The notes: a model not told the origin generated them from the letters alone. 64,000 nucleotides of DNA from Bacteroidales bacterium (GCA_028282785.1 JANQHE010000024.1:73612-137611); one strand, 5' to 3'. Positions 27,514 through 51,163 are shown, counted from the stretch's first letter. Translations and numbers: made by a program.

Positions 27514-27926
27514 ACTCGGTGATTCTGCAAATAGCAGCCAGGTATATTAAAGCATTGTTAGTACTTTTTGCAATGATTGCTTTATTACGGGGGCATAATT
27601 ACCCGGGAGGCGGCTTTATTGGTGGCTTGTTGGCAGCATTGTCAGTTATTTATTATGGTTTTGCATTCAATGTAAGGCAAGTTCGCGAAAAACTAAAAGT
27701 TAACCCGGCAACTTATATAGCGATAGGATTATTTTTAGTCGTTTTAAGCTTTATTCCTTCTATATTAAATCAGTTAGAACTGATGCAAGGAGTATGGCTT
27801 AAAGTTCAGATACCGGTTCTGGGCGAGTTAAAATTAGGAACACCTTTCTTGTTCGATATGGGTGTGTTTTTAACAGTGATAGGTGTTACATTTTTATTTT
27901 TTTTCTCATTAACAAAAGTTGAATAA
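27510..27926 (+). CDS. mrpB: Na+/H+ antiporter subunit B
   Basis: 138 aa. GHNYPGGGFIGGL motif. ATGA overlap with mrpA. Confidence 0.85.
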   Translation: MNSVILQIAARYIKALLVLFAMIALLRGHNYPGGGFIGGLLAALSVIYYGFAFNVRQVREKLKVNPATYIAIGLFLVVLSFIPSILNQLELMQGVWLKVQIPVLGELKLGTPFLFDMGVFLTVIGVTFLFFFSLTKVE

Positions 27927-28270
27927 TGGAGATTTTATTAGCCATATTGGTTGGAATATTATACACCGCCGGTGTTTATATGATACTTCGTCGAAGCATT
28001 GTAAAATTTATTATTGGGATTATTTTCTTGAGCAATGCTACAAATCTATTGGTTTTTCTCGCTTCGGGAGTAGTTTCGGGAAAGCCGGTATTTGTGGGCG
28101 AAGAACCGGCCAATGCATCTCAAATGGCAGACCCGTTGCCTCAGGCTTTAGTTTTAACAGCAATTGTTATCGGTTTTGGAATAGTAGTTTTTACATTGGC
28201 ACTAAAATATAAGTTTTTTGAGCTTACCGGAACCGACGATTTGGATCAATTGAAAAAAACAGATAATTGA
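27926..28270 (+). CDS. mrpC: Na+/H+ antiporter subunit C (NuoK-like)
   Basis: 114 aa, 3 TM. DPLPQALVLTAIVIGF motif. Confidence 0.85.
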   Translation: MEILLAILVGILYTAGVYMILRRSIVKFIIGIIFLSNATNLLVFLASGVVSGKPVFVGEEPANASQMADPLPQALVLTAIVIGFGIVVFTLALKYKFFELTGTDDLDQLKKTDN

Positions 28271-28271
28271 T

Positions 28272-29753: not shown

Positions 29754-29759
29754 ATTGAA

Positions 29760-30092
29760 ATGCAGATATTAAAGAAAATATATTATGTGGTGGAATTTGT
29801 GCTTTTCTATTTTTTAAAACTAGTGCAATCCAATATTTATATTGCATACGATATATTAACACCTAATCTGAAAAGTTTTCCCGGAATTGTGAAAGTACCT
29901 TTGTACATCAGTTCCGATTTTGGCATATTGGCTTTTGCTAATTTACTCTCTATGACTCCAGGTACTTTGACAATAGATGTCAGCGAGGATAAAAAAGAAA
30001 TTGTAGTGCATGTTTTATATAGTAAAAATAAGGAAGCTGTGATGTTTGAAATAGGCCAGGTACAACAAAAAATAAATAAAATCTTTAGTTAG
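29760..30092 (+). CDS. mrpE: Na+/H+ antiporter subunit E (short form)
   Basis: Position in the operon. SMTPGTLTIDVSEDKKEIVVHVL matches the MnhE core. 110 aa. Confidence 0.7.
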   Translation: MQILKKIYYVVEFVLFYFLKLVQSNIYIAYDILTPNLKSFPGIVKVPLYISSDFGILAFANLLSMTPGTLTIDVSEDKKEIVVHVLYSKNKEAVMFEIGQVQQKINKIFS

Positions 30093-31082: not shown

Positions 31083-31168
31083 TTCGTTTAAAGAATCATT
31101 TTAATTGATAAACATATGTTAAAATTAATTGTTTAATTTTCTAATAACAATTATTAATGGAAATTATC

Positions 31169-32314
31169 ATGAAATTATTGGATAATATATTATTACCAAT
31201 CGATTTTAGCGACTCATCGGAAAAAGTTGTTGATGCTTCGGTTCAGTTAGCCAAAACCTTTAAATCAAGGATTACTTTGTTGCATGTGTACTCAGAAGAA
31301 CATTTTCCCGAAAAAACAGAAAGATTCCTTGAAATTGCAATTAAAGATAACCTGGAAAAAGTTAAAACTAAAATTACAGAGGCTGATATTGAGGTAGCAG
31401 AAATAATGATGGAAAGAGGTGTAGCATTTGAAAAGATTATTCAAATTGCCCAGGATAGGGATGTTAACGTAATTATGGTTGGCTCCGGTAGTAAAAAAGA
31501 AAATGATAATTTTAAGTTAGGCACAACAGTCGAAAAACTTATGCGCAAAAATCAGATACCACTTTGGGTTGTTAAAAACGGAGCGATTAAACCCATTCAA
31601 AAGATCGTTTGTCCGGTTGATTTTTCGAACTCTTCCATACGAGCATTTCAAAATGCTGTTACCTTAACTGAAAGGTTTGATGCTGAGTTGAATCTCATAC
31701 ATGTTTTTGAACCGGTTATGAGTACTTCAGCAAGGCTAAGCGTAAACGCTGAAGAAGAAAACAAAAAACGGAAAGAACTAAAAGAAAAAGAACTAAATGA
31801 TTTTTTAGCAAATTACCAACTTGATCATATAAGATTAACTAAAGATTTATTAATGGGAGTTCCATTTTTGGAAATACTTAGGTATATCAAACGAAATAAT
31901 TCCGATTTATTGATCATGGGTACAACAGGGAAAACTGGTTTAAGTAAACTTTTAATGGGTAGTGTTACCGAAAAAGTTACCAGGGAGCTACCTTGTAGTT
32001 TTATTACTACAAAAGCCAAAGATATAACCGATAATTACCTTGAAAGTAATTTGAAAGGAATAGAATCAATATTAAATCCGGCAAAATCTTTGCTTAAAAA
32101 AGGAAAATATGAGCAATCCATTGAAAAGTTTTTAATTGGAATAAAACAATATCCGGATAATATTCCGATGTTAAAAGGAATAATAGAAGCATATGAGGCT
32201 TTAGGAAATGAAAAGAAAGCTAGTTATTACAAAGACTATATTACGGAAGTTGTAAAAAGGATTTGGGGTGAGGAATATCTCCATATGATCAATTTAGATA
32301 AAAAGATTAAATAG
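31169..32314 (+). CDS. tandem universal stress protein with C-terminal TPR-like tail
   Basis: Two USP modules (LLPIDFSDSS, VCPVDFSNSS, MGTTGKTGLSKLLMGSVTEKV) plus KGKYEQSIEKFLIGIKQYPDN. Start chosen by alignment with the paralog at 35888..36994. The ORF track start is 31157. Confidence 0.8.
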   Translation: MKLLDNILLPIDFSDSSEKVVDASVQLAKTFKSRITLLHVYSEEHFPEKTERFLEIAIKDNLEKVKTKITEADIEVAEIMMERGVAFEKIIQIAQDRDVNVIMVGSGSKKENDNFKLGTTVEKLMRKNQIPLWVVKNGAIKPIQKIVCPVDFSNSSIRAFQNAVTLTERFDAELNLIHVFEPVMSTSARLSVNAEEENKKRKELKEKELNDFLANYQLDHIRLTKDLLMGVPFLEILRYIKRNNSDLLIMGTTGKTGLSKLLMGSVTEKVTRELPCSFITTKAKDITDNYLESNLKGIESILNPAKSLLKKGKYEQSIEKFLIGIKQYPDNIPMLKGIIEAYEALGNEKKASYYKDYITEVVKRIWGEEYLHMINLDKKIK

Positions 32315-35887: not shown

Positions 35888-36994
35888 TCATATATCCCAA
35901 TAGCGTTTTAAAATCTCATTTTTGTAGGCTGTATAAAATTTCACTTTTTGTTGATTTTCTATGGATGTATATGAATTTATTAACCCATTAATAATAGGAA
36001 CATTATCAGGATATTGCCTAAGCCCCATTAGGTATTTATCTATTGCTTCGTTATACTTTCCTTTTTTTAATAGTTCTTTTGCAGGAATAAGAATTGATTC
36101 TACCCCTTGTAAGTGACTTTCCAGAAAATCATCGGTAATATCCTGCTCTTTAGTTGTTACTAAACTACAAGGCAGCTCCCTGGTAACTTTTTCGGTAGTA
36201 CTTCCCATTAATAATCTACTAATACCGGTTTTTCCTGTAGTGCCCATAAGTAATAAATCCGTTTTTTGTTTTTCAATAGTTTTAATAATTTCAACATTAG
36301 GATTCCCTTTTAATAATTCTTTTGTGTAAGCTATTGATTTTAAATTGAAATGGGCCAGGAAATCAGAAAAAGCAGCTTTTCTTTCTTTATAAAGCTTTTC
36401 ATTCTGTACATTTATATGCGAACCCAGCCTGATTGAATTTCCCGCGTAAGGTGTAAATATATGTATTATAGATAAATTTGCATTGAACGACCTGGCAAGA
36501 GTAATTGCGTTTTGCAATGCACGTTTGGAAGGGCTTGAAAAGTCAACCGGGCATAAAATACTTTTTATGGGTTTCACCGGTTCATTTTTTACAACCCAAA
36601 GCGGTATCTGATTCTTCCGCATAAGTTTTTCGACGGTTGTTCCTAATTTGAATTTATTATCATGCGATTTTGAACCAGATCCAACAATAATAACATTTAC
36701 ATTTTTCTTTTGAGCAACCTGGATAATTTTTTCAAAAGCTATTCCTTTTTCTATGATAACTTCCGGGATATCAAGATTCTCTTTAAAAATTTTTACTTTT
36801 ATTTCGGAGATCCTATTATAGGTATAAATTTCAATTTTTCTTTCTGTTTCCTTGGTGAGGGTTTCATCTGATGATACATGTATTATTGAGATACTGGAAT
36901 TAAATACTTTTGCTAATTGAATTGAAACATCAATTGCCCTATCAGAAGGTTCGCTAAAATCTACTGCTACTAATATGTTTTTAAGTAATTTCAT
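35888..36994 (-). CDS. tandem universal stress protein with C-terminal TPR-like tail (paralog of 31169..32314)
   Basis: Collinear with the other copy along the full length. Identical blocks include KLGTTVEKLMRKNQIPLWVVKN, MGTTGKTG and TEKVTRELPCS. Confidence 0.8.
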   Translation of the reverse strand: MKLLKNILVAVDFSEPSDRAIDVSIQLAKVFNSSISIIHVSSDETLTKETERKIEIYTYNRISEIKVKIFKENLDIPEVIIEKGIAFEKIIQVAQKKNVNVIIVGSGSKSHDNKFKLGTTVEKLMRKNQIPLWVVKNEPVKPIKSILCPVDFSSPSKRALQNAITLARSFNANLSIIHIFTPYAGNSIRLGSHINVQNEKLYKERKAAFSDFLAHFNLKSIAYTKELLKGNPNVEIIKTIEKQKTDLLLMGTTGKTGISRLLMGSTTEKVTRELPCSLVTTKEQDITDDFLESHLQGVESILIPAKELLKKGKYNEAIDKYLMGLRQYPDNVPIINGLINSYTSIENQQKVKFYTAYKNEILKRYWDI

Positions 36995-37274: not shown

Positions 37275-37324
37275 TTTAGTTAGTAGTTTCAATCTAGAAA
37301 CGCTATTAAACAGAACTTATTTAG

Positions 37325-37339
37325 TTAAATAATATTTAA
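37325..37339. promoter_or_regulatory. 15-bp perfect palindrome TTAAATAATATTTAA (candidate XRE-cupin operator)
   Basis: One of four copies, all with 1 mismatch or none, in the two intergenic regions flanking the regulator gene. Confidence 0.45.
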
Positions 37340-37444
37340 TTAGCCAGATAAAAAAATAGATGCTATCTATTTTGTTGTGTAATTATGTCAAATTATTTTT
37401 TGTAATAACTTTGTAATTGTATAATAAAATATTTGCAAATATAA

Positions 37445-37459
37445 TTAAACATTATTTAA
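37445..37459. promoter_or_regulatory. operator-like palindrome copy (TTAAACATTATTTAA, 1 mismatch)
   Basis: 50 nt upstream of the regulator ATG. Confidence 0.4.
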
Positions 37460-37508
37460 TTTGTGAAATTATATTTAATTATTAATTTTTAATGATAAGA
37501 TTAGTATA

Positions 37509-38063
37509 ATGCATAGAATGGGTGATAGAATCAAAAAAATTAGGGAGAACTTAAACATTCAAACGAATGATTTAGCAAAAGAAGTAGGTGTTACTTCCAG
37601 TTTAATTTCTCAAATAGAAAGAGCAAAAGCTTTCCCATCTATAATTACCCTGAAAAAAATTGCAGATGCTCTTCAAACTACGGTTGGAGAACTGATAGGC
37701 GAAACAGAAACCTTAATAGAAAACCCATTACTGAAATATAAAGAAAGAAAGTTTGTTAAGGAAAATGGCAATGGAGCCAGGTTGTTTCTATTATCACATC
37801 ATGATCCACATAAGCACATGGATCCCTTTATCATTGAGTTTAATAAGGATGCAGATTCTAAGGATATAATGACTACCATTAATCCTTGTCAGGAATATTG
37901 TTTTGTAATTAAAGGAAGTTTTGAAGTGCTATTGAGTAACCGAAAATATATGTTAAATGAAGGTGACAGCTTTTATTTTAATTCAAACCAATATCATTTA
38001 TTTACAAATGTAAGTAATGAAGATGCTCAATTATTATGGGTTGTAAATCAAAATACAACTTAA
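37509..38063 (+). CDS. XRE-family HTH regulator with C-terminal cupin sensor domain
   Basis: IKKIRENLNIQTNDLAKEVGVTSSLISQIERAKAFPSIITLKKIADAL (HTH_3), then a cupin-like EYCFVIKGSFEVLLSNRKYMLNEGDSFYFNSNQYH. Confidence 0.85.
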   Translation: MHRMGDRIKKIRENLNIQTNDLAKEVGVTSSLISQIERAKAFPSIITLKKIADALQTTVGELIGETETLIENPLLKYKERKFVKENGNGARLFLLSHHDPHKHMDPFIIEFNKDADSKDIMTTINPCQEYCFVIKGSFEVLLSNRKYMLNEGDSFYFNSNQYHLFTNVSNEDAQLLWVVNQNTT

Positions 38064-38077
38064 AAAATTTATGTATA

Positions 38078-38098
38078 TAATTAAATAATATTTAATTA
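38078..38098. promoter_or_regulatory. 21-bp perfect palindrome TAATTAAATAATATTTAATTA (contains the 15-bp operator core)
   Basis: Between the regulator stop and purE. The core at 38081..38095 is identical to 37325..37339. Confidence 0.5.
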
Positions 38099-38173
38099 AA
38101 GAAAAAATACTTAAATGAGAAGAATAATATAATAAAAATTGATAAAGAATGTAAAATTTTTTTATATGATATA

Positions 38174-38188
38174 TTAAATAATACTTAA
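38174..38188. promoter_or_regulatory. operator-like palindrome copy (TTAAATAATACTTAA, 1 mismatch)
   Basis: 24 nt upstream of the purE ATG. Confidence 0.4.
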
Positions 38189-38211
38189 TAAACTAAAATA
38201 AATTTAATAAA

Positions 38212-38694
38212 ATGGAAAAAGTAGTTATTATAATGGGGTCAAAAAGTGATCTTGATTGGGCAAAAAAAATATCTAATACATTAACAAAGCTTGAAATAAA
38301 AAGCGCAATACATGTTGCATCGGCTCATAAAGTTCCTTTAAAATGTTACGACTTAATAAAGGAGTATGAAAAAGAAAATGTGGTTTTCATAACAATTGCA
38401 GGTATGAGTAATGCGCTTAGCGGATTTTCCGATGCGCAAACCTATTGTCCGGTAATTGCTTGTCCTCCATACAGTGACAAATTTGGCGGTGCTGATTTGT
38501 TTTCAAGTGTTCGTATGCCATCGGGTGTTGCTCCCTTAACCATTCTAAGTCCGGAGAATGCTGCTCTGGCTGCGGCTAAAATAATAGGCTTAAAAAATAC
38601 CGATATACAAAAAAAGGTTACTGAATATCAAGCCAAAAAAAGAGAAGAATTGGAAAAAGCCGATGAGGAGTTACAGAAAAGTAAGGAGAGTTAA
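38212..38694 (+). CDS. purE: class II PurE-type AIR carboxylase (phosphoribosylaminoimidazole carboxylase catalytic subunit)
   Basis: IIMGSKSDLDWAKK, ASAHKVP, and IAGMSNALSGFSDAQTYCPVIACPP...RMPSGVAPLTILSPENAALAAAKIIGL. This parallels the eukaryote/class II motif AGRSNGLGP...PVISCPP rather than class I GGSAHLPG. Confidence 0.75.
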   Translation: MEKVVIIMGSKSDLDWAKKISNTLTKLEIKSAIHVASAHKVPLKCYDLIKEYEKENVVFITIAGMSNALSGFSDAQTYCPVIACPPYSDKFGGADLFSSVRMPSGVAPLTILSPENAALAAAKIIGLKNTDIQKKVTEYQAKKREELEKADEELQKSKES

Positions 38695-38697
38695 ATT

Positions 38698-39723
38698 ATG
38701 GGAAGCGTAAAAGATTTAGAAGTGATACAAGCACCTGAAAAAGATTCTTCAGGTGTTGGTGTATTTAATTTTTCTGACCGGTATTCTGTTTTTGACTGGG
38801 GCGAGATGCCAGACACTATACCTCACAAAGGTGCTGCTACTGCCATACTTGGAGCTTTCTTTTTTGAAAAGATCGAGAAGCTTGGAATTGAAACCCACTA
38901 TATGGGGCTTCTGGAAAACAATGTTCCAAATAAGTTAAAAGATATCACCACTCCGTCAAATCTCATGATGATTGACATGGTTAACGTACATCAACCGGTT
39001 ATTAAAAATGATATCTATAATTATAGTGTTTACAAAAAGTTAACAGGCAATTTTCTTATTCCGCTGGAAATTATTTATCGTAATACTTTACCTGCGGGAA
39101 GTAGTGTTTTTAAAAGACTATCCAGAGGAGAACTGAAATTTTCTGATTTAGGATTAAATTCGGAACCCCAACCTGATACAAAGTTAGCTGTTCCATTTAT
39201 CGATTTTTCAACAAAACTGGAAATAACCGATCGATATATACCTCAACTTGAAGCACAGGAAATTTCGGACATGGATAATTTTGAGATAGATATTTTAGCA
39301 GATATAGCCTTGAAAATCAATGAAATTATTTCTTCGGAATATTCGAAAATCAATGCTGTTAACCTTGATGGTAAAATAGAAACAGCATTCAATACAAAAA
39401 GAAAAATAATGCTTGTAGATGTATTGGGTACTCTGGATGAATGCAGGTTTGAATTAAACGGTTTACACTTAAGTAAAGAAGTTGCACGCATCTATTACAG
39501 AAATTCTGACTGGTATCATGAAACAGAAAGGGCAAAAGAAAAAGACAGGCAAAATTGGAAAAAAGAATGTAAACTGCAACCGGAACCTCTACCGGCAAGA
39601 TTTAGAGATCTGCTTTCTTTCATGTATTGTAAGGTTACTAACGAAATTACAGAAAAGCAATGGTTTGATGTACCTATGACTCTTAATGAAATTACGAAAG
39701 AAATAAAAACCTATATCAAATAA
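38698..39723 (+). CDS. purC: SAICAR synthetase family protein (long form)
   Basis: GSVKDLEV, FSDRYSVFDWG, IPHKGAA, IPLEIIYRNTLPAGSS, NLDGKIETAF...MLVDVLGTLDECRF correspond to PurC motifs. 341 aa. Confidence 0.65.
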   Translation: MGSVKDLEVIQAPEKDSSGVGVFNFSDRYSVFDWGEMPDTIPHKGAATAILGAFFFEKIEKLGIETHYMGLLENNVPNKLKDITTPSNLMMIDMVNVHQPVIKNDIYNYSVYKKLTGNFLIPLEIIYRNTLPAGSSVFKRLSRGELKFSDLGLNSEPQPDTKLAVPFIDFSTKLEITDRYIPQLEAQEISDMDNFEIDILADIALKINEIISSEYSKINAVNLDGKIETAFNTKRKIMLVDVLGTLDECRFELNGLHLSKEVARIYYRNSDWYHETERAKEKDRQNWKKECKLQPEPLPARFRDLLSFMYCKVTNEITEKQWFDVPMTLNEITKEIKTYIK

Positions 39724-39755: not shown

Positions 39756-41321
39756 ATGTTAAAAACAAATACAAGTAACATTCAGTCATCAGATATAGAA
39801 AAAATGATGGAACGTTATCAGTTCTCTGAAGAAATTGTTTCAATTCTTGAAATAGAAAACCTTATCCCCGCAAGGCTGTTAAGCAGGTTACACAATGTTT
39901 ACCCACAACATTCAGGTATCTTAACTTTATCAGAATTTCTATTTAAGAGGAAAAATCATTATGCGGGTTTAAACGGGTTCAGAGAGATAGTAGAAATACT
40001 GCAAAAAAATGGAATTGAAATTGGGTATTTAGAAGAACGTGAGCTTTTTATAAAGGTTTACCGCTTTTTAGCAACAAAGCATGTTCTAAATTCTATTAAC
40101 TGGCAGGATTTTAATAACGATTCAATTTTTCAATTAGTTTTCCCACAGCCCGGAATGATAAAACATGAAGTAGTTAAAACCTATAGTAATGCAAAGGATG
40201 AAGATGAAAGAAAAAAAGTTGTTGAAGATTACATAAAAGAAACAAATCCTCATGATGGTAAACAAAAATTAAACAGGCCGTGCTTTGAAAATCAGGGAGG
40301 GGTTGTTGAGGTAGTAGAAGGAGGTCAGCACAAATATCCTCAATGCCACCTGATATTCGATAAAACTACTCAAAATTGCTTTGCGTTCTGTACATATTGC
40401 TTTAGACATGCACAAGTTCGTGGCGACGAAGATATGTTTTTACAAAAGGATGCCAATCAGGTTCATGAGTATTTAAAAATACATAAAGAAATTACAGATG
40501 TGCTCATTACGGGTGGCGACGCTGGTTATATGCCATATGAACGGCTTAAACAATATGTTCTGCCTATTATTGATGACCCTGAATTATCGCATATAAAAAC
40601 ATTGCGACTGGGATCACGTGCTTTGACTTTTCATCCTGAATTAATTCTAACCACTGAATACACTAAAATACTGGGTCTATTTAAAAAGATGATAGATAAT
40701 GGGATTCAGGTTGCATGGATGACACATTTTTCTACTCCTCGGGAAGTGCTTAATATTAGTACAATAGCTGCTATTCGTCGCTTAAGAAAAAGAGGGATAG
40801 TAGTAAAAAGCCAAAGTCCGGTTATGAACCATATTAGCATTTTTACAAACCCGGATGGAACAATTGATGTGGACAAATCTGCTCAAAACTGGATAGACCT
40901 CGGGAACATTTTTGCCATGTTAACAATTGGGTTTCACTCAATGTATTGTGCCCGGCCAACAGGCGAACATCATTATTTCACGGTTCCATTAGCTGATATG
41001 AACAAGGTATTTAGCAAAGTCTACAGGTCACTGCCATCAATCAGCCGGCCCTCAAGGTATATTACAATGACTTCTTCCGCAGGGAAAACTTCTTTGCTTG
41101 GTGTTACAGAAGTTAATGGTAAAAAAGCCTTTGCTCTTAAATTTAATGAAAGTAGAAATATGGAATGGATGGATAAAGTTTATCTGGCAATCTATGATGA
41201 GAAAGAAAACACAATAGAAAGACTTAAACCATTTGATTCTGAAAAATATTTTTACGAAGAAGAACTGGGAAATCTTGAAAAAATACTTGAAGAAGCTCTA
41301 ACGAATCAACTGCAAAAATAA
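39756..41321 (+). CDS. KamA-family radical SAM aminomutase-like protein (lysine 2,3-aminomutase family)
   Basis: CFAFCTYC (nt 40377-40400), ITDVLITGGDAGYM, LRLGSRALTFHPE and MTHFSTPREV parallel KamA motifs. Long N-terminal extension. The ORF track start at 39729 is TTG, so I prefer ATG 39756. Confidence 0.8.
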   Translation: MLKTNTSNIQSSDIEKMMERYQFSEEIVSILEIENLIPARLLSRLHNVYPQHSGILTLSEFLFKRKNHYAGLNGFREIVEILQKNGIEIGYLEERELFIKVYRFLATKHVLNSINWQDFNNDSIFQLVFPQPGMIKHEVVKTYSNAKDEDERKKVVEDYIKETNPHDGKQKLNRPCFENQGGVVEVVEGGQHKYPQCHLIFDKTTQNCFAFCTYCFRHAQVRGDEDMFLQKDANQVHEYLKIHKEITDVLITGGDAGYMPYERLKQYVLPIIDDPELSHIKTLRLGSRALTFHPELILTTEYTKILGLFKKMIDNGIQVAWMTHFSTPREVLNISTIAAIRRLRKRGIVVKSQSPVMNHISIFTNPDGTIDVDKSAQNWIDLGNIFAMLTIGFHSMYCARPTGEHHYFTVPLADMNKVFSKVYRSLPSISRPSRYITMTSSAGKTSLLGVTEVNGKKAFALKFNESRNMEWMDKVYLAIYDEKENTIERLKPFDSEKYFYEEELGNLEKILEEALTNQLQK

Positions 41322-41358
41322 GCTTGGAATTATCGATTCATGTTTTAACTATTTAGTA

Positions 41359-42072
41359 ATGATCAATAAGATAGTAAAATCAACTTCTGAAGCAGTCAAA
41401 GATATTTTTGATGGTGCTGTTATTATGATTAGCGGATTTGGCGAAGCAGGTAGTCCAATTGAATTAATTCATGCCCTCATTGATCAAGGTGCTAAAGATT
41501 TGACAATAATAAGTAATAATACAGGAAGCGGACATGTTGGATTAGCTGCCCTAATAGAATGCAAAAAGGTTAGAAAGATGGTTTGTTCTTTTCCCAGGAC
41601 AGCTAATTCGACTGTTTTTCCCGAACTATATTCAAAAGGAGATATTGAACTTGAATTAGTACCACAGGGAACTTTAGCCGAAAGAATAAGGTCCGGAGGT
41701 GCAGGGATTCCCGCTTTTTATACATCTACATCGGTAAATACTCCATTGGCTGAGGGAAAAGAAATTCGTGTGTTCGATAACACTCAGTATGTAATGGAAT
41801 ATGGTATTAAAGCCGACTTCGCATTAATAAAATGCGAGGCTGCAGATCGCCATGGTAATCTAATATACAACAAAACTGCCAGAAATTTTGGCCCGATTAT
41901 GTGTACGGCAGCAGAAAAAACAATTGTTCAGGCAAAACGAATTGTTGAGTTAGGAGAAATTGACCCTGAATCTATTGTTACTCCGGGCATATTTGTAAAA
42001 AGAGTTGTAGAAGTCAGTAATCCTGCTGATGAATCAACACTTGTAAAAGAAAACAGGAGGTATCCATGGTAG
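41359..42072 (+). CDS. 3-oxoacid/acetoacetate CoA-transferase subunit A
   Basis: IMISGFGEAGSPIELIHALIDQGAKDLTIISNN, PQGTLAERIRSGGAGIPAFYT. Confidence 0.85.
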   Translation: MINKIVKSTSEAVKDIFDGAVIMISGFGEAGSPIELIHALIDQGAKDLTIISNNTGSGHVGLAALIECKKVRKMVCSFPRTANSTVFPELYSKGDIELELVPQGTLAERIRSGGAGIPAFYTSTSVNTPLAEGKEIRVFDNTQYVMEYGIKADFALIKCEAADRHGNLIYNKTARNFGPIMCTAAEKTIVQAKRIVELGEIDPESIVTPGIFVKRVVEVSNPADESTLVKENRRYPW

Positions 42073-42722
42073 AAAAAAAAATAAAAAAAGGATGGAGCCG
42101 AAATGAGATGGCACAAAAGGTGGCACTGGATATTCCCGATGGCTCTTATGTAAATCTTGGAATAGGAATTCCTGAACTGGTTGCTGATTTTGTCCCTGAA
42201 GGTCGTGAAGTAATATACCATACCGAGAATGGCTTACTTGGTATGGGACCGGCACCTGAGAAAGGACAAGAAGATCCCGAACTTATAAATGCAGGTAAAA
42301 AAAATATAACAGCTATTAAGGGTGCTTGTTTTTTTCATCATGCCGATAGTTTTACTATGATAAGAGGAAAACATATTGATATCTGCGTTTTAGGAGCATT
42401 TGAAGTTTCCGAAAAAGGCGATCTTGCAAACTGGTCGACCGGAGAACCTGGTGCTGTACCTGCTGTAGGTGGCGCTATGGACCTGGTTGCAGGAGTAAAA
42501 AACATCCTGGTTATAACACAGCATACAACAAAAAACGGTAAACCAAAAATTGTTGAAAATTGCACCTACCCTCTAACTGGTAAAGGAGTTGTTAACCGTA
42601 TTTATACAAATCTTGCAATAATTGATATCACTGAAGAAGGGCTTATTGTTAAAGAATTAGCCAAGGGCATTAATTTTGAATATGTGCAGGAAAGAACAGG
42701 AGCAAAACTTAGGATGTCATAA
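42066..42722 (+). CDS. 3-oxoacid/acetoacetate CoA-transferase subunit B
   Basis: YVNLGIGIPELV, the catalytic-Glu motif HTENGLLGMGP, and VPAVGGAMDLVAG. Overlaps subunit A by 7 nt. Confidence 0.85.
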   Translation: MVEKKIKKGWSRNEMAQKVALDIPDGSYVNLGIGIPELVADFVPEGREVIYHTENGLLGMGPAPEKGQEDPELINAGKKNITAIKGACFFHHADSFTMIRGKHIDICVLGAFEVSEKGDLANWSTGEPGAVPAVGGAMDLVAGVKNILVITQHTTKNGKPKIVENCTYPLTGKGVVNRIYTNLAIIDITEEGLIVKELAKGINFEYVQERTGAKLRMS

Positions 42723-42744
42723 ATTTTCATAGAGTTTATTTAGT

Positions 42745-44094
42745 ATGGAGCATAGTATTAATACAGAAATAAAAAAACGTACCAACGAAGAAATATACCA
42801 ACAAGCATGTAAAGTTATACCGGGTGGGGTAAGTAGAAATACTGTATTTCATGAACCATACCCGCACTATGTTCACCATGCAAGTGGATGCTATGTTATC
42901 GATATAGATGGTGTTCAGCGAATTGATTTTGCCAATAATATGGCAGCATTAATCCATGGGCATGCTTTCACACCAATAGTAGATGGTGTTATTGAACAAA
43001 TTAAAAATGGTACGGCTTATACCATGGCTACAGAGGTAGAAGTGGATTTTGCACAATTATTATGTAACAGGGTTTTAGGATTTGAAAAGATTAGGTTTGT
43101 TAACTCAGGCACCGAGGCTGTTATGGCTATGATAAAGGCTTCCCGGGCATTTACTGGAAAACCTAAAATAGCAAAGGCCGAAGGTGCCTACCATGGAACT
43201 TATGATTTTGCAGAAGTAAGTCAATTTGCCGATCCAACTAATTGGGGCGATATTAACAAACCGAACAGTGTTCCATTGGCATATGCGACACCACAAGGAG
43301 TTTTAGATGATGTAATAATTTTTCCGTACAATGATATCAAAAGGACAATCTCTATTTTGGACCAATATGCAGATCAGATCGCTTGTGTTCTTATAGACCC
43401 AATACCCCACAGAGTTGGTTTATTAAAAGGGTCAACTGAATTTATGGAAGCATTATATAAATGGACGCGTAAGAATAAAGCTTTACTTGTATTCGATGAA
43501 GTTGTAACCTTCCGGACTAATTACAGTGGTGCCCAGGAATATTATTCCGTAAAGCCGGACCTTACGGCTTTAGGTAAAATAATAGGAGGAGGTTTTCCTG
43601 TTGGTGCATTTGCAGGGCGTTCGGATATAATGAGTATACTTGACCCTACTGGGAGCAAGTTGCTATTTCCACACTCAGGTACTTTTTCTGCAAATCCTGT
43701 TACTATGACAGCCGGACGAATTGCTATGGAGTTTTTTGACAAAGAGGCCATCCTGAAACTAAATACATTAACCCAAAAGGCTATTAATCAAATTGAAGAA
43801 GCTATTAAAATAGCAGGTGTACCGGTATCAATTACGGGAGCAGGGTCAATGTTTCGTATTCATTTAAGGTCATTGCCTCCAATTACCTATCGTGAAGCTT
43901 ACCAGTCAAAAGAAAAAAAAATCATCATCAACGAAATACTGGATTATCTTTTTTATAAAGAAAACATTATGATGATAAATACATGTGCTTGTATGTTTTC
44001 AACAGCCATAACACAAATTGAAGTTGACAGGCTTTCTGAAGGTATGTTGAATGCATTCAAGTTAATTAAACCAAAACTTGGAAGATTACAGTAA
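42745..44094 (+). CDS. class III (HemL-like) PLP-dependent aminotransferase/aminomutase
   Basis: NSGTEAVMAMIKASRAFTG, LVFDEVVTFR, and the PLP-lysine motif DLTALGKIIGGGFPVGAFAGR. Confidence 0.85.
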   Translation: MEHSINTEIKKRTNEEIYQQACKVIPGGVSRNTVFHEPYPHYVHHASGCYVIDIDGVQRIDFANNMAALIHGHAFTPIVDGVIEQIKNGTAYTMATEVEVDFAQLLCNRVLGFEKIRFVNSGTEAVMAMIKASRAFTGKPKIAKAEGAYHGTYDFAEVSQFADPTNWGDINKPNSVPLAYATPQGVLDDVIIFPYNDIKRTISILDQYADQIACVLIDPIPHRVGLLKGSTEFMEALYKWTRKNKALLVFDEVVTFRTNYSGAQEYYSVKPDLTALGKIIGGGFPVGAFAGRSDIMSILDPTGSKLLFPHSGTFSANPVTMTAGRIAMEFFDKEAILKLNTLTQKAINQIEEAIKIAGVPVSITGAGSMFRIHLRSLPPITYREAYQSKEKKIIINEILDYLFYKENIMMINTCACMFSTAITQIEVDRLSEGMLNAFKLIKPKLGRLQ

Positions 44095-44111
44095 CATATG
44101 AAAAATTAATT

Positions 44112-45314
44112 ATGAAAGAAGTATATATATGTGATGCCATAAGAACTCCCGTTGGTCGTTATGGAGGATCTCTTTCGCCGGTAAGAGCCGATGATCTGGC
44201 GGCAATTCCTCTCAAGGCACTAATGGAAAGAAACCCGGGTATTAATTGGCTGGATACTGATGATGTTATGTTAGGCTGCGCAAACCAGGCCGGGGAAGAT
44301 AACCGGAACATCGCTAGAATGTCTTTATTGCTTGCCGGCTTATCTGAAACTATTTCCGGTGTAACTATTAACAGGCTTTGTGGTTCGGGAATGGATGCGA
44401 TTGGTACTGCTGCAAGGGCAATTAGGTCAGGAGAAGCAGATTTGATTCTTGCCGGTGGAGTTGAAAGCATGTCAAGGGCCCCTTTTGTAATGAGTAAAGC
44501 AACCAGTGCATTTTCCCGATCTAATGAAATGTATGACACAACAATTGGGTGGAGGTTTATTAATCCATTGTTCGATAAAAAATATGGTACGGAATCAATG
44601 ATTCAAACCGCTGAGAACATTGCGACTGATCTTAATATTAGCCGGGAAGATCAGGATAAATTCGCATTTCAGAGTCAGAAGAAAGCACATTTTGCGCAAT
44701 TAAACGGTTTACTTGAACAAGAAATAAATCCTGTGATAATTCCACAACGAAAAGGTGATGATGTAGTTATTGAAACAGATGAACACCCAAGATCAACTAC
44801 GATTGAAAAACTGGCTGCATTAAAACCAATAATACCAAAAAAGGGGACTATAACTGCAGGAAATGCTTCAGGAATAAACGATGGAGCTGCAGCATTAATA
44901 ATTGCATCTGAGAATGCGGTAAAACAATATAATTTAAAACCAAAAGCAAAGATTCTGGGAATGAAAACAGCAGGTGTTCTCCCCCGTATTATGGGCATGG
45001 GGCCAGTTTCTGCAACCCGGAAACTTTTGGAACATTTAGGGTTAAGCTTAAAAGATATTGATATTATTGAATTAAATGAAGCCTTTGCTGCGCAAGCTTT
45101 AGGTTGTATTCGCGAGCTTGGCCTGCAGGACGACGATCCAAGAATAAACCCCCTGGGAGGAGCAATTGCTTTAGGACACCCACTGGGTATGAGTGGAGCA
45201 CGGCTGGTTACTACAGCCACATATCAATTGATGCGGTCGAATTCAAAGAAAGCCCTTTGCACTATGTGCATAGGAGTTGGGCAAGGTATAGCTGTTATAC
45301 TCGAAAAAGTTTAA
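44112..45314 (+). CDS. acetyl-CoA C-acetyltransferase (thiolase II)
   Basis: INRLCGSGMDA (nucleophilic Cys), NEAFAAQ, GGAIALGHPLGMSGAR, CIGVGQGIA. Confidence 0.9.
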   Translation: MKEVYICDAIRTPVGRYGGSLSPVRADDLAAIPLKALMERNPGINWLDTDDVMLGCANQAGEDNRNIARMSLLLAGLSETISGVTINRLCGSGMDAIGTAARAIRSGEADLILAGGVESMSRAPFVMSKATSAFSRSNEMYDTTIGWRFINPLFDKKYGTESMIQTAENIATDLNISREDQDKFAFQSQKKAHFAQLNGLLEQEINPVIIPQRKGDDVVIETDEHPRSTTIEKLAALKPIIPKKGTITAGNASGINDGAAALIIASENAVKQYNLKPKAKILGMKTAGVLPRIMGMGPVSATRKLLEHLGLSLKDIDIIELNEAFAAQALGCIRELGLQDDDPRINPLGGAIALGHPLGMSGARLVTTATYQLMRSNSKKALCTMCIGVGQGIAVILEKV

Positions 45315-45335: not shown

Positions 45336-46295
45336 ATGACAAAAAAAAACCATATAAAAAAAGCTGCAAAAATTATTCAGGATGGAGGCCTTGTTGCTTT
45401 TCCAACTGAAACTGTTTATGGGTTGGGAGCCAATGCTCTTAATCCCGATGCTGTCATAAAGATTTTTGAAGCAAAACAAAGGCCATCGTTTGACCCTTTG
45501 ATTGTACACATTTGTGATATTAAAGATATCGACTGTTTATGTTTAAATGTTGATGAAAGAGTATATAAGTTAGCAAAAAGGTTTTGGCCGGGCCCCTTAA
45601 CAATTATTTTACCAAAAAAAGATATTGTGCCTGATATTGTTACCTCAGGATTATCAACCGTAGCTATTAGGATGCCAGCCCATGATGTTGCACTTCAGTT
45701 AATTGATAAAGCCGGTTGCCCCATTGCTGCACCAAGCGCTAATAAATTTGGTAAACTTAGCCCAACAAAAGCAGAACATGTAATGAAACAACTTTCGGAT
45801 GTTGATTTGATAATCGACGGTGGAAAAACAACGGTTGGAATTGAATCAACTGTTATATCTTTAAGCCCGGCAGGGTTTAAAATTCTAAGGCCCGGTGTAA
45901 TAACCGAGGAAGAAATCGAGTTTATTATTCCTCGGGATAATTCTATTAAAATAAATGATGGCAGTTTGGTATCTCCGGGCCTTTTAAAATCTCATTACAG
46001 CCCAATTAAGCCACTATCTATCTTTAAAGATGGTGATTATTATCCCGAATCAAAGAAAATCGGATACCTTGCTTTTCAAAAAAACAATTTGACTCTCCAT
46101 TACAGTACTGTAGAAATCCTATCCGAAAAAGGAGACTTAAAAGAAGCTGCGGTAAACCTTTTTGGAGCCCTACACCGTCTGGAAGATTCGGATGTTGATA
46201 TGATTGTTGCGGACCCTGTTCCTGAAGTAGGAGTTGGAGTTGCAATCATGGATAGATTAAGAAAAGCATCTTATACAAAAAACGAAAAATATTAG
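45336..46295 (+). CDS. tsaC: L-threonylcarbamoyladenylate synthase (YrdC domain plus Sua5 C-terminal domain)
   Basis: GGLVAFPTETVYGLGANA, KQRPSFDPLIVH, PGPLTIIL, APSANKFGKLSPT, followed by a Sua5-type C-terminal domain. Confidence 0.85.
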   Translation: MTKKNHIKKAAKIIQDGGLVAFPTETVYGLGANALNPDAVIKIFEAKQRPSFDPLIVHICDIKDIDCLCLNVDERVYKLAKRFWPGPLTIILPKKDIVPDIVTSGLSTVAIRMPAHDVALQLIDKAGCPIAAPSANKFGKLSPTKAEHVMKQLSDVDLIIDGGKTTVGIESTVISLSPAGFKILRPGVITEEEIEFIIPRDNSIKINDGSLVSPGLLKSHYSPIKPLSIFKDGDYYPESKKIGYLAFQKNNLTLHYSTVEILSEKGDLKEAAVNLFGALHRLEDSDVDMIVADPVPEVGVGVAIMDRLRKASYTKNEKY

Positions 46296-46316
46296 AAGAA
46301 TATAAAAATTAAATAG

Positions 46317-47204
46317 ATGAAAGCAGACAGAAAAGATATTCTTGTACCAGTTGATTTTGGAGAAAATACAAAAAATGTACTGAAATATGCTTGTAAAATT
46401 CAAGATAAATTAAAGGGGAAGTTGCATTTGTTACATGTAGTATTTAAAGAATCCTGGTGGGCAAAATCAGTATTAACTGATGAAGTTACTCATTATGCAA
46501 AGGAAAAATTACAACGTTATATAAAACGGTATGATTTAAATGAAGATACCATTATTCAGGTAAAAACCGGAAAAAGGCATAAAGTGATTTTGGAATACGC
46601 AAGTTCTATAAATCCTGCTTTTATAATCTTATCAGATAAATATCCTTCAAATAAAGGAGTGAAAAAGTTGGGCTCAACACTGTCGCAAATAATTATTTCA
46701 TCAAAGTTCCCCGTAATTGTAACAAAATCTGAAACGAGAACTGTATTTAAGAATGTATTATTACCCTTGGATTTAATGCAAGATTGTCAGCTTAAGCTCA
46801 GGAATTCAATTTCCATTGCTTTGAACTTTAATTCAAAAATACATCTGGCATCAGTGCTATTTGGTAACTCCAGGGTAAATTGGAAAAAGATCAATGAAAA
46901 ACTTGAGGACTATAAGAATAACTATTTGGAAAGAGGTATTGGTTATTCGGTACAACTTTTACAGAAAAGGAAAGAAATGGCTTATAAGGAAATACTAAAT
47001 ATAGCCGAAGAAAAAGAATATGATGCTATTCTCATCATGACCCATAATGAAAAAGGTATTGATAATTATTTAGGAGCTTTTGCTCAACACATAATAAATG
47101 AATCAACTATACCTGTGATTAGTATAACAAAACAGGCTGCAAAAGAAAAGTATGGAAACTTCTTTAAAGCAGTAATGGATCCGTTAGGCGTTATTAAATA
47201 CTAG
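46317..47204 (+). CDS. universal stress protein (tandem USP domains)
   Basis: DILVPVDFGENTKN and LLPLDLMQD modules. Same C-terminal architecture (GAFAQHIINESTIPVISIT) as 24298..25206. Confidence 0.75.
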   Translation: MKADRKDILVPVDFGENTKNVLKYACKIQDKLKGKLHLLHVVFKESWWAKSVLTDEVTHYAKEKLQRYIKRYDLNEDTIIQVKTGKRHKVILEYASSINPAFIILSDKYPSNKGVKKLGSTLSQIIISSKFPVIVTKSETRTVFKNVLLPLDLMQDCQLKLRNSISIALNFNSKIHLASVLFGNSRVNWKKINEKLEDYKNNYLERGIGYSVQLLQKRKEMAYKEILNIAEEKEYDAILIMTHNEKGIDNYLGAFAQHIINESTIPVISITKQAAKEKYGNFFKAVMDPLGVIKY

Positions 47205-47227
47205 ATATATATGTAATTAAGAACATT

Positions 47228-48286
47228 GTGAACAACACTAAAACAACAAATATTCTATTATTAACCATAGTAATTACGGTTGTATTTTATTTCTTAAAGA
47301 TATTATCTTTTATTTTTGTCCCGCTTATACTATCAATGTTTATAGCATTGATGTTTTTACCGGTAAAACGATGGTTAAATAAGCATGGTGTACCAAGGCC
47401 GGTTAGCGTTTTGATAATTGTCCTGTTAATCGGTGGCATCTTAAAAGTTGGTTTTGAATTAATTCAACTTACCAGTAAAGAAATTCTTGCGGACACCAGC
47501 TTAATCGAAAGAATGGAATTAAAGTTTGTTGAATTAATTGTTTTAATCGAAAACTTTTTTGGAATACAACGTCTTGAGGGTGAAAATGTAATCTTACATT
47601 ATTTTCGAAAAAGTAGTATCATAAATAATTTTGGTTCAACAATTGAATTTATTGGTGATACTCTTACCATGACTTTAATGACTGTTTTTTTTACCATTCT
47701 TTGGCTTTCAGAATCCATAAATTTTCAGAAGTTATTAAATCATACCATTCTTAAGCAAAAATTTTCCTCAATAAAAGTTTTTATGAGGATAGAGAAAGAT
47801 CTGATAAAGTTTGTAATCGTTAAGTTCTTTATTAGTCTGTTAACAGGTATAGGATTCACTTTTACTTGCCTGTTATTTGATGTCAGCTGGCCTGTTTTTT
47901 GGGGCCTGTTTGCATTTGTATTTAATTTTGTTCAGATGGTAGGCTCTTTTGTTTCGGTTATTATAGCATCTTTATTTGCTTTTGTTGAGCTTGATTCTAC
48001 AGGAACTTTGTTATTTTTTATAATAGTATTAACAGGCATTGAGGTTTTAATGGGTGGAATTTTAGAACCCGTTTTTATGGGGAGGTCCTTTTCAATAAAT
48101 GTGATTGCAATTTTGGTTATGTTGATGTTCTGGAGCTATTTATGGGGTGTTCCTGGCTTGATCATGTCCATACCGATAACCGTTTTCTTAAAAATTATTT
48201 TGGAGCAATTTCCTGGAACAAAGGTTATTGCCGAATTATTATCCGGTAATGAGGAAAATCTGAACTTTGTGCGGTTTAAAAAATAA
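47228..48286 (+). CDS. AI-2E (PerM/YhhT) family transporter
   Basis: 8 TM segments. The C-terminal block LEPVFMGRSFSINVIAILVMLMFWSYLWGVPGLIMSIPITV is characteristic. GTG start. Confidence 0.8.
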   Translation: MNNTKTTNILLLTIVITVVFYFLKILSFIFVPLILSMFIALMFLPVKRWLNKHGVPRPVSVLIIVLLIGGILKVGFELIQLTSKEILADTSLIERMELKFVELIVLIENFFGIQRLEGENVILHYFRKSSIINNFGSTIEFIGDTLTMTLMTVFFTILWLSESINFQKLLNHTILKQKFSSIKVFMRIEKDLIKFVIVKFFISLLTGIGFTFTCLLFDVSWPVFWGLFAFVFNFVQMVGSFVSVIIASLFAFVELDSTGTLLFFIIVLTGIEVLMGGILEPVFMGRSFSINVIAILVMLMFWSYLWGVPGLIMSIPITVFLKIILEQFPGTKVIAELLSGNEENLNFVRFKK

Positions 48287-49654: not shown

Positions 49655-51163
49655 TTACGGATAATATAAACCGGAATCGGGTCCGAGAGGCCAACCCAAT
49701 GCCAACCAAATTATCAGAATAATTGCCCAGATAATAAAAAAGAAAAAAGTATACGGGAGCATAGTAGCTACAATTGTGCCAATTCCGGCTTTTTTGTCAT
49801 AACGTTGAAAGAAGGCCACAATTAATGCGAAATATGCCAACATTGGAGAAATAATGTTGGTTACGGAATCGCCGATCCGATAAGTGTTTTGGACAAGCTC
49901 CGGCGAGTATCCCAGGATCATAAACATAGGAACAAAAGCAGGAGCCAATATGGCCCACTTTGCCGAGGCACTTCCCATAAATAAGTTTAGAATTCCAACC
50001 AGAATAATAAAAGCGATCATTAATGGAATAGAACCTAGATTCAGAGTCTTAATAAAACCAGCAGATTCAATGGCAAAAATCAACCCGATATTGGTCCATT
50101 TAAAATATGCAACAAACTGGGCAGCAAAAAAGGTTAGTACTATGTAAATACCTAATGTTTCCATTGCTTTACCCATTCCATTCATTATATCTGTATCACT
50201 TTTATAGGTACGTGCACCGATTCCATAGGCGATACCCAAAACTGCAGCAACGATAAATATAATGGCTACAATTCCCATTAAAAATGGCGAACGTAAAATA
50301 TCTCCGTTTTCACCTCTTAAAAACCCTTCTTGTGGGATTACTCCCAACAAAATGATCACAAAAACTATTACACCGGCAATTGCAGAAAATCGCAACCCCC
50401 TTTTTTCCAGTTTTGATAACTTTTGAAGTTCTTCAGGTTTTTCTTCACCTTTATAAGTTCCGAGCCTTGGTATCACAAATTTTTCTGTGATCCACGTTCC
50501 TGCCAGGGCAATAAAAAGGGTAGAAACAAACATGAAATAATAGTTGGCAGCAGGATTTACAAGGTAATCGGGCTCAATAATTTGGGCTGCTTCTTCTGTT
50601 AAACCTGCCAACAATGGATCAATGGTCCCTAAAAGTAAATTAGCACTGTACCCTCCTGAAACTCCGGCAAAGGCAGCTGCCATTCCGGCTAGCGGATGAC
50701 GGCCCACAGATAAGAATATAATGGCTCCCAGAGGAACAAGTAAAACGTAACCAACTTCGCTCGCCGTATTCGATAAAATAGCCGAGAATACAACCACAAA
50801 AGTAAGTAAACGTTTAGGTGCCGATGTCACTAACAGGCGCAAAACAGTCCCAATAAACCCACTGCTTTCTGCAATCCCGATTCCAAGCATAGCAACTAAA
50901 ACCGTACCTAATGGAACAAAACCTGTAAAATTGGTTACCATTTCTTTCAGGATCCTCCCAAGCCCTTCCTTTGACATCAGGTTTACCGGTGCGATCATTT
51001 CACCTGTTCGCGGATGAGCAGCCTGAATGTCGAATAAACTTAAAAATCCGGATAGAAGAATTACTAAAAAGGAAAAAATGGCAAATAAAGTAGCAGGGTG
51101 AGGTAAAGCATTCCCTCCTTTTTCTACTATATTTAGGAATTTGGCAAAAAATCGATTTTTCAT
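49655..51163 (-). CDS. AbgT family transporter (p-aminobenzoyl-glutamate/antimetabolite transporter family)
   Basis: N-terminal [18 protein letters not shown] plus a polytopic 502-aa body, typical of AbgT. Confidence 0.85.

Follow-up and report, generated by a model that had tools for sequence, protein, structure and literature searches.

A conserved module of a KamA-like radical-SAM protein, a CoA-transferase, an aminotransferase and a thiolase in a Bacteroidales bacterium: a proposed route for L-2-aminoadipate catabolism

What compound passes through a KamA-like radical S-adenosylmethionine (radical-SAM) protein, a two-subunit CoA-transferase, a class III aminotransferase and a thiolase when the five genes encoding them lie side by side? 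The question is raised by a 64,000-nucleotide stretch of DNA from an uncultured Bacteroidales bacterium (GCA_028282785.1 JANQHE010000024.1:73612-137611; hereafter, the window), in which these five genes, the module, follow one another on one strand. A preliminary description, made from the sequence alone, placed five open reading frames (ORFs) there, as do our own ORF calls, and sketched a fermentation route for an amino acid that it left as unknown. The gene context in four lineages, a thiolase of the PcaF type and a transferase of the succinyl-CoA:3-oxoacid type lead us to propose L-2-aminoadipate (AAA) as this substrate. We assign a probability of roughly 55% to the reading that the module catabolizes AAA via 3-aminoadipate, 3-oxoadipate and 3-oxoadipyl-CoA to succinyl-CoA and acetyl-CoA. 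We infer all of the substrates, as well as the order of the second and third steps, from family placement, residue conservation, co-conservation and gene context.

Do the five genes belong together? Eighty-eight loci (designated by L numbers) were examined; at least 5.7 kb downstream of the radical-SAM start was available in 66 of them, and ORF clustering and residue conservation were carried out on 80. All five genes are colinear in 64 of the 66 loci with enough downstream sequence, the exceptions being L019 and L032. This association is far beyond chance, and the four activities form one co-conserved unit, as the preliminary description had supposed. The clustering of all ORFs from the 80 loci revealed no other conserved partner gene, a local regulator apart, and no recurring kamDE, kdd or kce gene clusters. 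In the window, the 50 larger ORFs were scanned with Pfam; domains of the kamDE, kdd, kce or kal type did not turn up among them, as had also been claimed, nor did a saccharopine dehydrogenase or an aldehyde dehydrogenase. The genes for MiaA, a CCA-adding enzyme, carbonic anhydrase, lipoate ligase and cysteine desulfurase were rejected as partners; they reflect clade-level housekeeping synteny, which is uninformative.

The module is widespread. A relative of the radical-SAM protein is encoded by 462 GTDB species representatives. The best 120 matches to this protein in a search of 5.8 billion proteins are 66-81% identical over the full length, and most of these 120 are either unnamed or labelled 'hypothetical protein' or 'lysine 2,3-aminomutase'. 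Carriers of the module include Bacteroidales, Saprospirales, Balneolales, Rhodothermaceae, Ignavibacteriota, Cloacimonadota, Acidobacteria, Elusimicrobia, Edwardsbacteria, SAR324, Desulfuromonadales and Gammaproteobacteria, and the hosts are mostly anaerobes. The locus nearest to the window is 90% identical, and the module proteins of the window are 56-75% identical to those of the proteobacterial and Desulfuromonadales loci. Among the carriers are cultured bacteria, namely Geopsychrobacter electrodiphilus, several Shewanella and Photobacterium species, Motiliproteus and Gallaecimonas, and so the module is directly testable; an Aliivibrio metagenome-assembled genome also carries it. A more distant relative of the radical-SAM protein, P0124 (39% identical), has an unrelated gene context. 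Judging by this single relative, the association is not general to KamA-like proteins and belongs to the radical-SAM family with more than 60% identity.

A gene encoding a B12-binding radical-SAM protein follows the module in two unrelated lineages (L086, 13913-15268; L087, 10909-12264; L019, 14660-16291). In L019, it occupies the place expected for the thiolase gene.

The transferase subunits, the aminotransferase and the thiolase are assigned unambiguously by Pfam and NCBIfam models (Pfam E-values of 6e-63 and 8e-43 for CoA_trans, 2e-49 for Aminotran_3, and 3e-73 and 2e-44 for Thiolase_N/C). The thiolase scores 681 bits on TIGR02430, the PcaF equivalog (cut-off 597), and 701 bits on NF006551, the 3-oxoadipyl-CoA thiolase subfamily (cut-off 605). 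Its nearest solved structures are the beta-ketoadipyl-CoA thiolases 6PCA-6PCD at about 567 bits, versus about 290-340 bits for acetoacetyl-CoA thiolases, and the catalytic Cys/His/Cys motifs are found as 'LCGSG', 'GHPLG' and 'CIGVGQG'. By family assignment, this is a PcaF-type 3-oxoadipyl-CoA thiolase, and we propose that its products are succinyl-CoA and acetyl-CoA. The preliminary description had written the products as acetyl-CoA plus an acyl-CoA; the latter is now predicted to be succinyl-CoA.

Both subunits of the transferase also exceed the cut-offs of their families: subunit A has 348 bits on TIGR02429 (pcaI/scoA, cut-off 128.5) and subunit B has 306 bits on TIGR02428 (pcaJ/scoB, cut-off 243.6). 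Subunit B has the TENG motif with the catalytic Glu, in 'YHTENGLLG'. The solved structure nearest to subunit A is the succinyl-CoA:3-ketoacid CoA-transferase 3CDK (221 bits versus 158 bits for an acetate CoA-transferase). These comparisons place the enzyme in the PcaIJ/ScoAB type, the family I 3-oxoacid CoA-transferases. We propose that it is a succinyl-CoA:3-oxoadipate CoA-transferase; the family models fit 3-oxoadipate or acetoacetate alike. Free 3-oxoadipate is the normal substrate of PcaIJ in the beta-ketoadipate pathway.

The aminotransferase resembles HemL (glutamate-1-semialdehyde aminomutase, GSAM) but is not a true HemL, which agrees with how it had been described before. Its score on the HemL equivalog TIGR00713 is 333 bits versus a cut-off of 527, and the Sphaerobacter thermophilus omega-transaminase 6K8H (383 bits), its nearest solved relative, and ForI (314 bits) are closer than any GSAM structure (about 195-226 bits). 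The beta-phenylalanine aminotransferases 2YKU (Mesorhizobium) and 4AO9 (Variovorax) follow at 177-185 bits, and the Schiff-base Lys is found in 'LGK278IIGGG'. Free beta- and gamma-amino acids are the substrates of 6K8H (PMC10589169). We propose that the module enzyme is a 3-aminoadipate:2-oxoacid aminotransferase that yields 3-oxoadipate. Because 6K8H is its closest solved relative, the free beta-amino acid would probably be transaminated first, with CoA transfer after it and then thiolysis. The earlier concept of a route made up of an aminomutase, a transferase, a transaminase and a thiolase is therefore kept, whereas its placing of CoA transfer before transamination is probably to be reversed.

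The preliminary description had also invoked a class III 3-aminobutyryl-CoA aminotransferase as a precedent, and this precedent is real: CLOAM0809, a HemL-like protein from 'Ca. Cloacimonas acidaminovorans' with an adjacent thiolase, is the 3-aminobutyryl-CoA aminotransferase Kat (Perret et al. 2011, PMC3149608). The CLOAM0809 gene was recovered by a metagenome scan with a published PCR primer. The encoded protein has 414 amino acids and is 28% identical (148 bits) to the window aminotransferase. Its locus (L082, 1170-5590) consists of a thiolase gene, the Kat gene and then a CTP synthase gene; the thiolase is of the acetoacetyl-CoA type and 41% identical to the window thiolase, and there is no CoA-transferase or aminomutase near Kat within the 12 kb of L082 that were read. 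With this low identity and an unrelated locus, orthology to Kat was rejected, and therefore the module is not the Kat system.

What does the radical-SAM protein do? It falls under the cut-off of every named KamA subfamily model, including those of the lysine, arginine and glutamate aminomutases and EpmB, and no NCBIfam model (June 2026) names it. On TIGR00238, the model for the KamA family, it has 73 bits versus a cut-off of 199, over residues 195-370 only. The equivalog scores are 67 versus 525 for lysine aminomutase (TIGR03820), 61 versus 650 for glutamate aminomutase and 47 versus 369 for EpmB (TIGR03821), the last being the lowest among the KamA subfamilies. Given this score and the catabolic enzymes next to it, an identity as EpmB was rejected, and the earlier view of an aminomutase-type protein holds. 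The nearest relatives of the family are 25-40% identical and unclassified, and by these comparisons, it is a distant sister family of the curated KamA proteins, more than 60% identical internally. The length of 530 amino acids reported earlier is the count from an upstream TTG codon, whereas the count from the ATG is 521.

An AlphaFold2 model built from an alignment of 38 sequences, distant relatives included, has a predicted local distance difference test (pLDDT) score of 92.2 and a predicted template-modelling (TM) score of 0.92; it replaced a poor model (pLDDT 67.5) built from 15 close homologues. The only strong structural match of the model is to the lysine 2,3-aminomutase (LAM) structure 2A5H (E 3.6e-16, 419 aligned columns of a 410-residue chain, TM-score 0.67 relative to the target), with the next match at 7e-5. 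As modelled, the protein has a LAM-type fold, and this confirms the KamA-like assignment that was weak at the sequence level.

Residues 86-368 of LAM were reconstructed from alignments and then aligned with the family. The CxxxCxxC cysteines C208/C212/C215 correspond to LAM C125/C129/C132, R217 (two residues past the third Cys) corresponds to LAM R134, and K444 corresponds to LAM K337; we take LAM R134 to be the Arg for the alpha-carboxylate and K337 to be the lysine that holds pyridoxal 5'-phosphate (PLP). The positions of LAM D293 and D330, which reportedly bind the epsilon-ammonium group of lysine, are occupied by R400 and T437. In the 80 family members, C208, C212, C215, R217, R400 and K444 are invariant, and position 437 is either Thr or Ser. 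The invariance of the catalytic residues indicates that the protein retains the catalytic machinery of a PLP/radical-SAM 2,3-aminomutase, and the replacement of the LAM Asp pair by Arg and Thr/Ser fits a substrate with a distal carboxylate. This replacement and the TIGR03820 score led us to reject lysine 2,3-aminomutase proper (KamA/AblA) as the identity. We propose that the protein is an L-2-aminoadipate 2,3-aminomutase that yields 3-aminoadipate.

The genes next to the module point to where AAA would come from: in four independent contexts, they encode enzymes of the kind that make it from lysine. In the five Cloacimonadota loci, genes of the saccharopine dehydrogenase (SDH) type and the lysine-ketoglutarate reductase (LKR) type lie upstream of the radical-SAM gene, at a distance of 14-17 nt in four of the five and with one gene inserted in the fifth. 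The SDH-type protein matches the saccharopine reductase 1E5L with 314 bits and the SDH domain of human AASS with 270 bits, and the LKR-type protein matches the LKR domain of human AASS with 265 bits, so that the pair resembles a split AASS; a 740-amino-acid permease for amino acids is encoded past the thiolase in all four loci that reach that far. In L086 and L087, genes for an opine-dehydrogenase-like protein, an ornithine-type omega-aminotransferase, a 365-amino-acid Sacchrp_dh protein and an L-piperideine-6-carboxylate (P6C) dehydrogenase (NF050084, 798 bits versus a cut-off of 730) are followed first by a LysR gene and then by the module. P6C dehydrogenase forms L-2-aminoadipate.

The other two lineages have similar sets of genes. 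In the SAR324 locus L079, the module is preceded by genes for a class III aminotransferase, a P6C dehydrogenase (818 versus 730), a flavoenzyme resembling DadA and pipecolate oxidase, a polar-amino-acid ATP-binding cassette (ABC) transporter with a Lys/Arg/Orn-type binding protein, and GntR and LysR regulators. In Geopsychrobacter electrodiphilus, a single strand carries genes for a P6C dehydrogenase that is 83% identical to the L086 enzyme, a 362-amino-acid Sacchrp_dh protein, the module, an amino-acid permease and a DAO-family oxidase. The best solved match of this Sacchrp_dh protein is PH1688 (3ABI), presumably an L-lysine dehydrogenase. Just upstream of this lysine/AAA operon (L089, 1133-5092) are genes for three more Sacchrp_dh paralogs (402, 392 and 444 amino acids) and an EamA transporter; the extra paralogs may reflect further opine or polyamine-type substrates.

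The pathway that we propose has four steps and begins with AAA, a product of lysine epsilon-deamination or oxidation. First, the radical-SAM/PLP enzyme would shift the amino group of AAA from C2 to C3 by KamA-type chemistry to give 3-aminoadipate. Second, the class III aminotransferase would pass the beta-amino group to a 2-oxoacid, leaving 3-oxoadipate. Third, the PcaIJ/ScoAB-type transferase would make 3-oxoadipyl-CoA with succinyl-CoA as the donor, and fourth, the PcaF-type thiolase would cleave it to acetyl-CoA and succinyl-CoA, the latter being recycled as the donor; these last two steps would be the self-priming loop of the classical beta-ketoadipate pathway. The net reaction would be AAA + 2-oxoacid + CoA -> amino acid + succinate + acetyl-CoA. 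Such a route would be oxygen-independent, and ATP could be made from the acetyl-CoA via acetate kinase.

Several points weigh against this reading. Genes that form AAA adjoin the module in only four lineages, at about nine of some 90 loci; the window is not one of these, and the Cloacimonadota operons are without an adjacent dehydrogenase for 2-aminoadipate semialdehyde or P6C. An Arg at the LAM D293 position is common also in a wider unclassified KamA-like clade ('xRD-TG'), and therefore R400 is no specific marker for AAA. The models of the PcaF clade may also take in thiolases of the PaaJ type, so that the acyl chain is constrained, not proven. 3-Aminoadipate was not found in the literature as an established metabolite of any pathway. 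Finally, the aminotransferase could act on a CoA ester instead of the free acid.

This last point leads to another reading, unlikely though well worth keeping in mind, in which the substrate is the same and the CoA ester is formed earlier: the transferase would convert 3-aminoadipate to 3-aminoadipyl-CoA, the aminotransferase would act on this ester as Kat does, and thiolysis of 3-oxoadipyl-CoA would follow. A free beta-keto acid would thereby be avoided, the order of the genes (radical-SAM, CoA-transferase, aminotransferase, thiolase) parallels this reaction sequence, and Kat itself shows that a HemL-like acyl-CoA beta-transaminase exists. However, the module aminotransferase has only 148 bits (28% identity) to Kat versus 383 bits to 6K8H, which transaminates free beta- and gamma-amino acids, and the transferase passes the cut-offs of 3-oxoacid families, for which free 3-oxoadipate is the usual PcaIJ substrate.

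Another acidic substrate would be quite improbable. The most plausible one is glutamate, which is plentiful for protein fermenters and would be converted to beta-glutamate, 3-oxoglutarate and 3-oxoglutaryl-CoA, and then to malonyl-CoA and acetyl-CoA. R400 and T437 would suit any distal carboxylate, and a glutamate 2,3-aminomutase exists that reportedly has basic or neutral residues at the positions of LAM D293 and D330. However, the thiolase is of the PcaF type and the transferase of the succinyl-CoA type, the radical-SAM protein is far under the cut-off of the glutamate aminomutase equivalog, as noted above, and the recurrent neighbours make 2-aminoadipate and not glutamate-specific intermediates.

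It is very improbable that the module runs in the biosynthetic direction, from succinyl-CoA and acetyl-CoA via 3-oxoadipate and 3-aminoadipate to 2-aminoadipate, for lysine synthesis of the saccharopine type or for a secondary metabolite. All four reactions are reversible in principle, and the Cloacimonadota neighbours resemble fungal LYS9 and LYS1. However, no 2-aminoadipate reductase is encoded nearby, the neighbouring P6C dehydrogenase carries out an aldehyde oxidation that is practically irreversible, and the neighbours include amino-acid permeases, a basic-amino-acid ABC transporter and catabolic regulators of the LysR and GntR types. Least credible of all is a shortened fermentation of lysine itself (beta-lysine, 3-oxo-6-aminohexanoate and its CoA ester, then 4-aminobutyryl-CoA and acetyl-CoA), even though the characterised neighbours all point to lysine catabolism and the JGI label of the radical-SAM protein is lysine 2,3-aminomutase, because both Asp residues for the epsilon-ammonium group are replaced (R400, T437) and the equivalog score is 67 versus 525, the adjacent lysine dehydrogenase, LKR-SDH and P6C dehydrogenase would remove the epsilon-amine first, and the thiolase is of a dicarboxylate (PcaF) type.

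Returning to AAA catabolism, no description of such a pathway, of 3-aminoadipate or of an aminoadipate aminomutase was found in the literature searched, subscription-only papers lying outside it. Known kinds of enzymes (a KamA-type aminomutase, a beta-transaminase and PcaIJF) are probably joined here in an undescribed catabolic route. We consider it somewhat better than an even bet that the radical-SAM protein is the first 2-aminoadipate 2,3-aminomutase, that the module is an oxygen-independent end of lysine catabolism in at least 460 species of about ten phyla, probably spread horizontally, and that 3-aminoadipate is a genuine metabolite of a central pathway. If so, the module would fill a gap in the disposal of AAA by anaerobes and by many facultative bacteria without the 2-oxoadipate/glutaryl-CoA route, it would link amino-acid fermentation to the lower beta-ketoadipate pathway, and the radical-SAM aminomutases would be extended by a sequence family and a class of substrate that are both new. 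Bacteria from digesters, sediments and the sea now carry these genes under the labels 'lysine 2,3-aminomutase', 'hypothetical protein', 'HemL' and 'acetyl-CoA acetyltransferase' in hundreds of genomes, a widespread mis-annotation that would be corrected. Enzymes that interconvert C6 dicarboxylates with succinyl-CoA and acetyl-CoA would be relevant to adipate and beta-amino-acid biocatalysis as well.

The surroundings of the module in the window are listed in Table 1. The five module genes are spaced by 17-37 nt or overlap. The preliminary description was right about these five genes, but the unit does not end with them (39756-45314): it extends from about 38212 to about 48286, with the regulator gene ahead, then PurE, PurC-like, the five genes, Sua5, a tandem universal stress protein (Usp) and an AI-2E transporter, and successive genes in it have gaps of 3-37 nt or overlap, the genes on either side of the five being set apart by 3-32 nt.

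Table 1. Coordinates of the module and of the features around it in the window
Feature	Coordinates	Strand	Remarks
18-bp motif cluster, first	37322-37481	.	upstream of regulator gene; candidate operator
HTH_3 + cupin transcriptional regulator	37509-38063	+	PuuR-like architecture; HTH_3 6e-12, Cupin_2 3e-12
18-bp motif cluster, second	38078-38191	.	promoter region before purE-like gene; candidate operator
PurE (AIR carboxylase / N5-CAIR mutase family)	38212-38694	+	TIGR01162 151.4 vs cut-off 149.6
PurC-like, divergent long form (SAICAR synthetase family)	38698-39723	+	NF010566 274 vs 546; TIGR00081 161 vs 190
Radical-SAM KamA-like gene	39756-41321	+	521 aa from ATG 39756; upstream TTG 39729 gives 530 aa
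CoA-transferase subunit A	41359-42072	+	PcaI/ScoA family
CoA-transferase subunit B	42066-42722	+	PcaJ/ScoB family
Class III (GSAM-like) PLP aminotransferase	42745-44094	+	Aminotran_3
Thiolase, PcaF type	44112-45314	+	Thiolase_N/C
Sua5/TsaC	45336-46295	+	passenger; 21-23 nt gaps in 45336-48286 stretch
Tandem-Usp protein	46317-47204	+	passenger
AI-2E family transporter	47228-48286	+	passenger

The PurC-like protein is under the equivalog cut-offs, and PurE carries a 'SAHK' motif that we take to be class II-like. The two purine-type genes, located after the regulator gene and ahead of the module, apparently share a transcript with the latter, and a comparable insertion (PurE with or without PurC, together with Sua5) is seen in L001, L009, L013 and L015. 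These four loci are the only ones with PurE beside the module, and PurC-like is restricted to L001, L009 and L013. Sua5/TsaC, a threonylcarbamoyl-AMP synthase, lies next to the module in several Bacteroidales, either upstream or downstream; it adjoins the module in six of the 80 loci (L004, L009, L013, L015, L030 and the close relative of the window). Because the PurE-like, PurC-like and Sua5 genes accompany the module in only 4-6 of about 90 loci, they were rejected as members of the pathway and are treated as passengers, although Sua5 may be either a passenger or an unrecognised link.

How is the module controlled? An ortholog of the regulator with a helix-turn-helix (HTH) and a cupin domain is present in 21 of the 80 loci, directly upstream of the module; its place is taken by a divergent LysR regulator in the loci of Proteobacteria and Desulfuromonadales. 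The 18-bp near-palindrome TTAAATAATATTTAATTA has seven matches in the window versus 0.24 expected, all of them in the two intergenic regions on either side of the HTH-cupin gene, and it recurs beside the regulator or upstream of the radical-SAM gene in about 20 other loci. This clustering and recurrence suggest that the sites are a candidate operator of the HTH-cupin regulator, through which the protein probably controls the module in this window.

The rest of the window contains several other features. Four tandem-domain Usp paralogs are encoded within about 23 kb (24298-25206, 31157-32314, 35888-36994 on the minus strand and 46317-47204), and two of them flank the operon region. An operon for an Mrp/Mnh-type multisubunit cation:proton antiporter (25216-30092) encodes a fused MrpA with MbhD and MbhE domains, MnhB, and 4L-like and MrpD-like subunits. 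The gene at 2001-6005 encodes a 1334-amino-acid fusion of two BcrAD/BadFG ATPase domains, DUF2229 and an HGD-D fragment, an architecture of the CoA-enzyme activase type, as in 2-hydroxyacyl-CoA dehydratase systems. A second radical-SAM protein, 508 amino acids long and with a BATS domain, has no relation to the module; its gene (12712-14238) is preceded by ABC-transporter and SufBD-like genes. Finally, an AbgT-family (p-aminobenzoyl-glutamate) transporter (642 bits) is encoded at 49655-51163 on the minus strand, about 1.4 kb past the operon and opposite to it.

Several known systems resemble parts of the module, with differences. Like the LAM KamA of Clostridium subterminale (2A5H), the radical-SAM protein keeps the fold over the whole LAM chain, the CxxxCxxC motif, the equivalent of R134 and the PLP lysine; unlike LAM, to which it is about 18% identical, it has an N-terminus that is about 85 amino acids longer, and Arg and Thr replace D293 and D330. 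The aminotransferase resembles the beta-amino-acid transaminases of the GSAM group (6K8H, 2YKU and 4AO9), solved relatives that convert free beta-amino acids to beta-keto acids, but the work on these concerned biocatalysis with aromatic or aliphatic beta-amino acids, and we know of no dicarboxylic substrate or pathway role for enzymes of this type. In the Kat variant of lysine fermentation, uncultured anaerobes, Cloacimonadota among them, likewise use a class III beta-transaminase of the HemL-like kind together with a CoA-transferase and a thiolase to remove the amino group from a beta-amino compound that derives from lysine; however, that pathway needs kamA, kamDE, kdd and kce, and the module is without these.

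In four lineages, genes next to the module encode homologues of enzymes from the routes that lead from lysine to 2-aminoadipate (LKR/SDH of AASS, the AmaA/AmaB pipecolate route, and lysine aminotransferase with P6C dehydrogenase). From there, the known routes continue to 2-oxoadipate and then to either glutaryl-CoA or, in Pseudomonas putida, 2-hydroxyglutarate; unlike these, the module would bypass 2-oxoadipate entirely. In its last two steps, it would resemble the lower beta-ketoadipate pathway, given that the thiolase passes the PcaF equivalog and the transferase subunits pass pcaI/scoA and pcaJ/scoB. However, the module has no upstream pca or cat genes and its hosts are largely anaerobes, and 3-oxoadipate would come here from an amino acid, by way of a beta-amino acid, and not from the cleavage of an aromatic ring.

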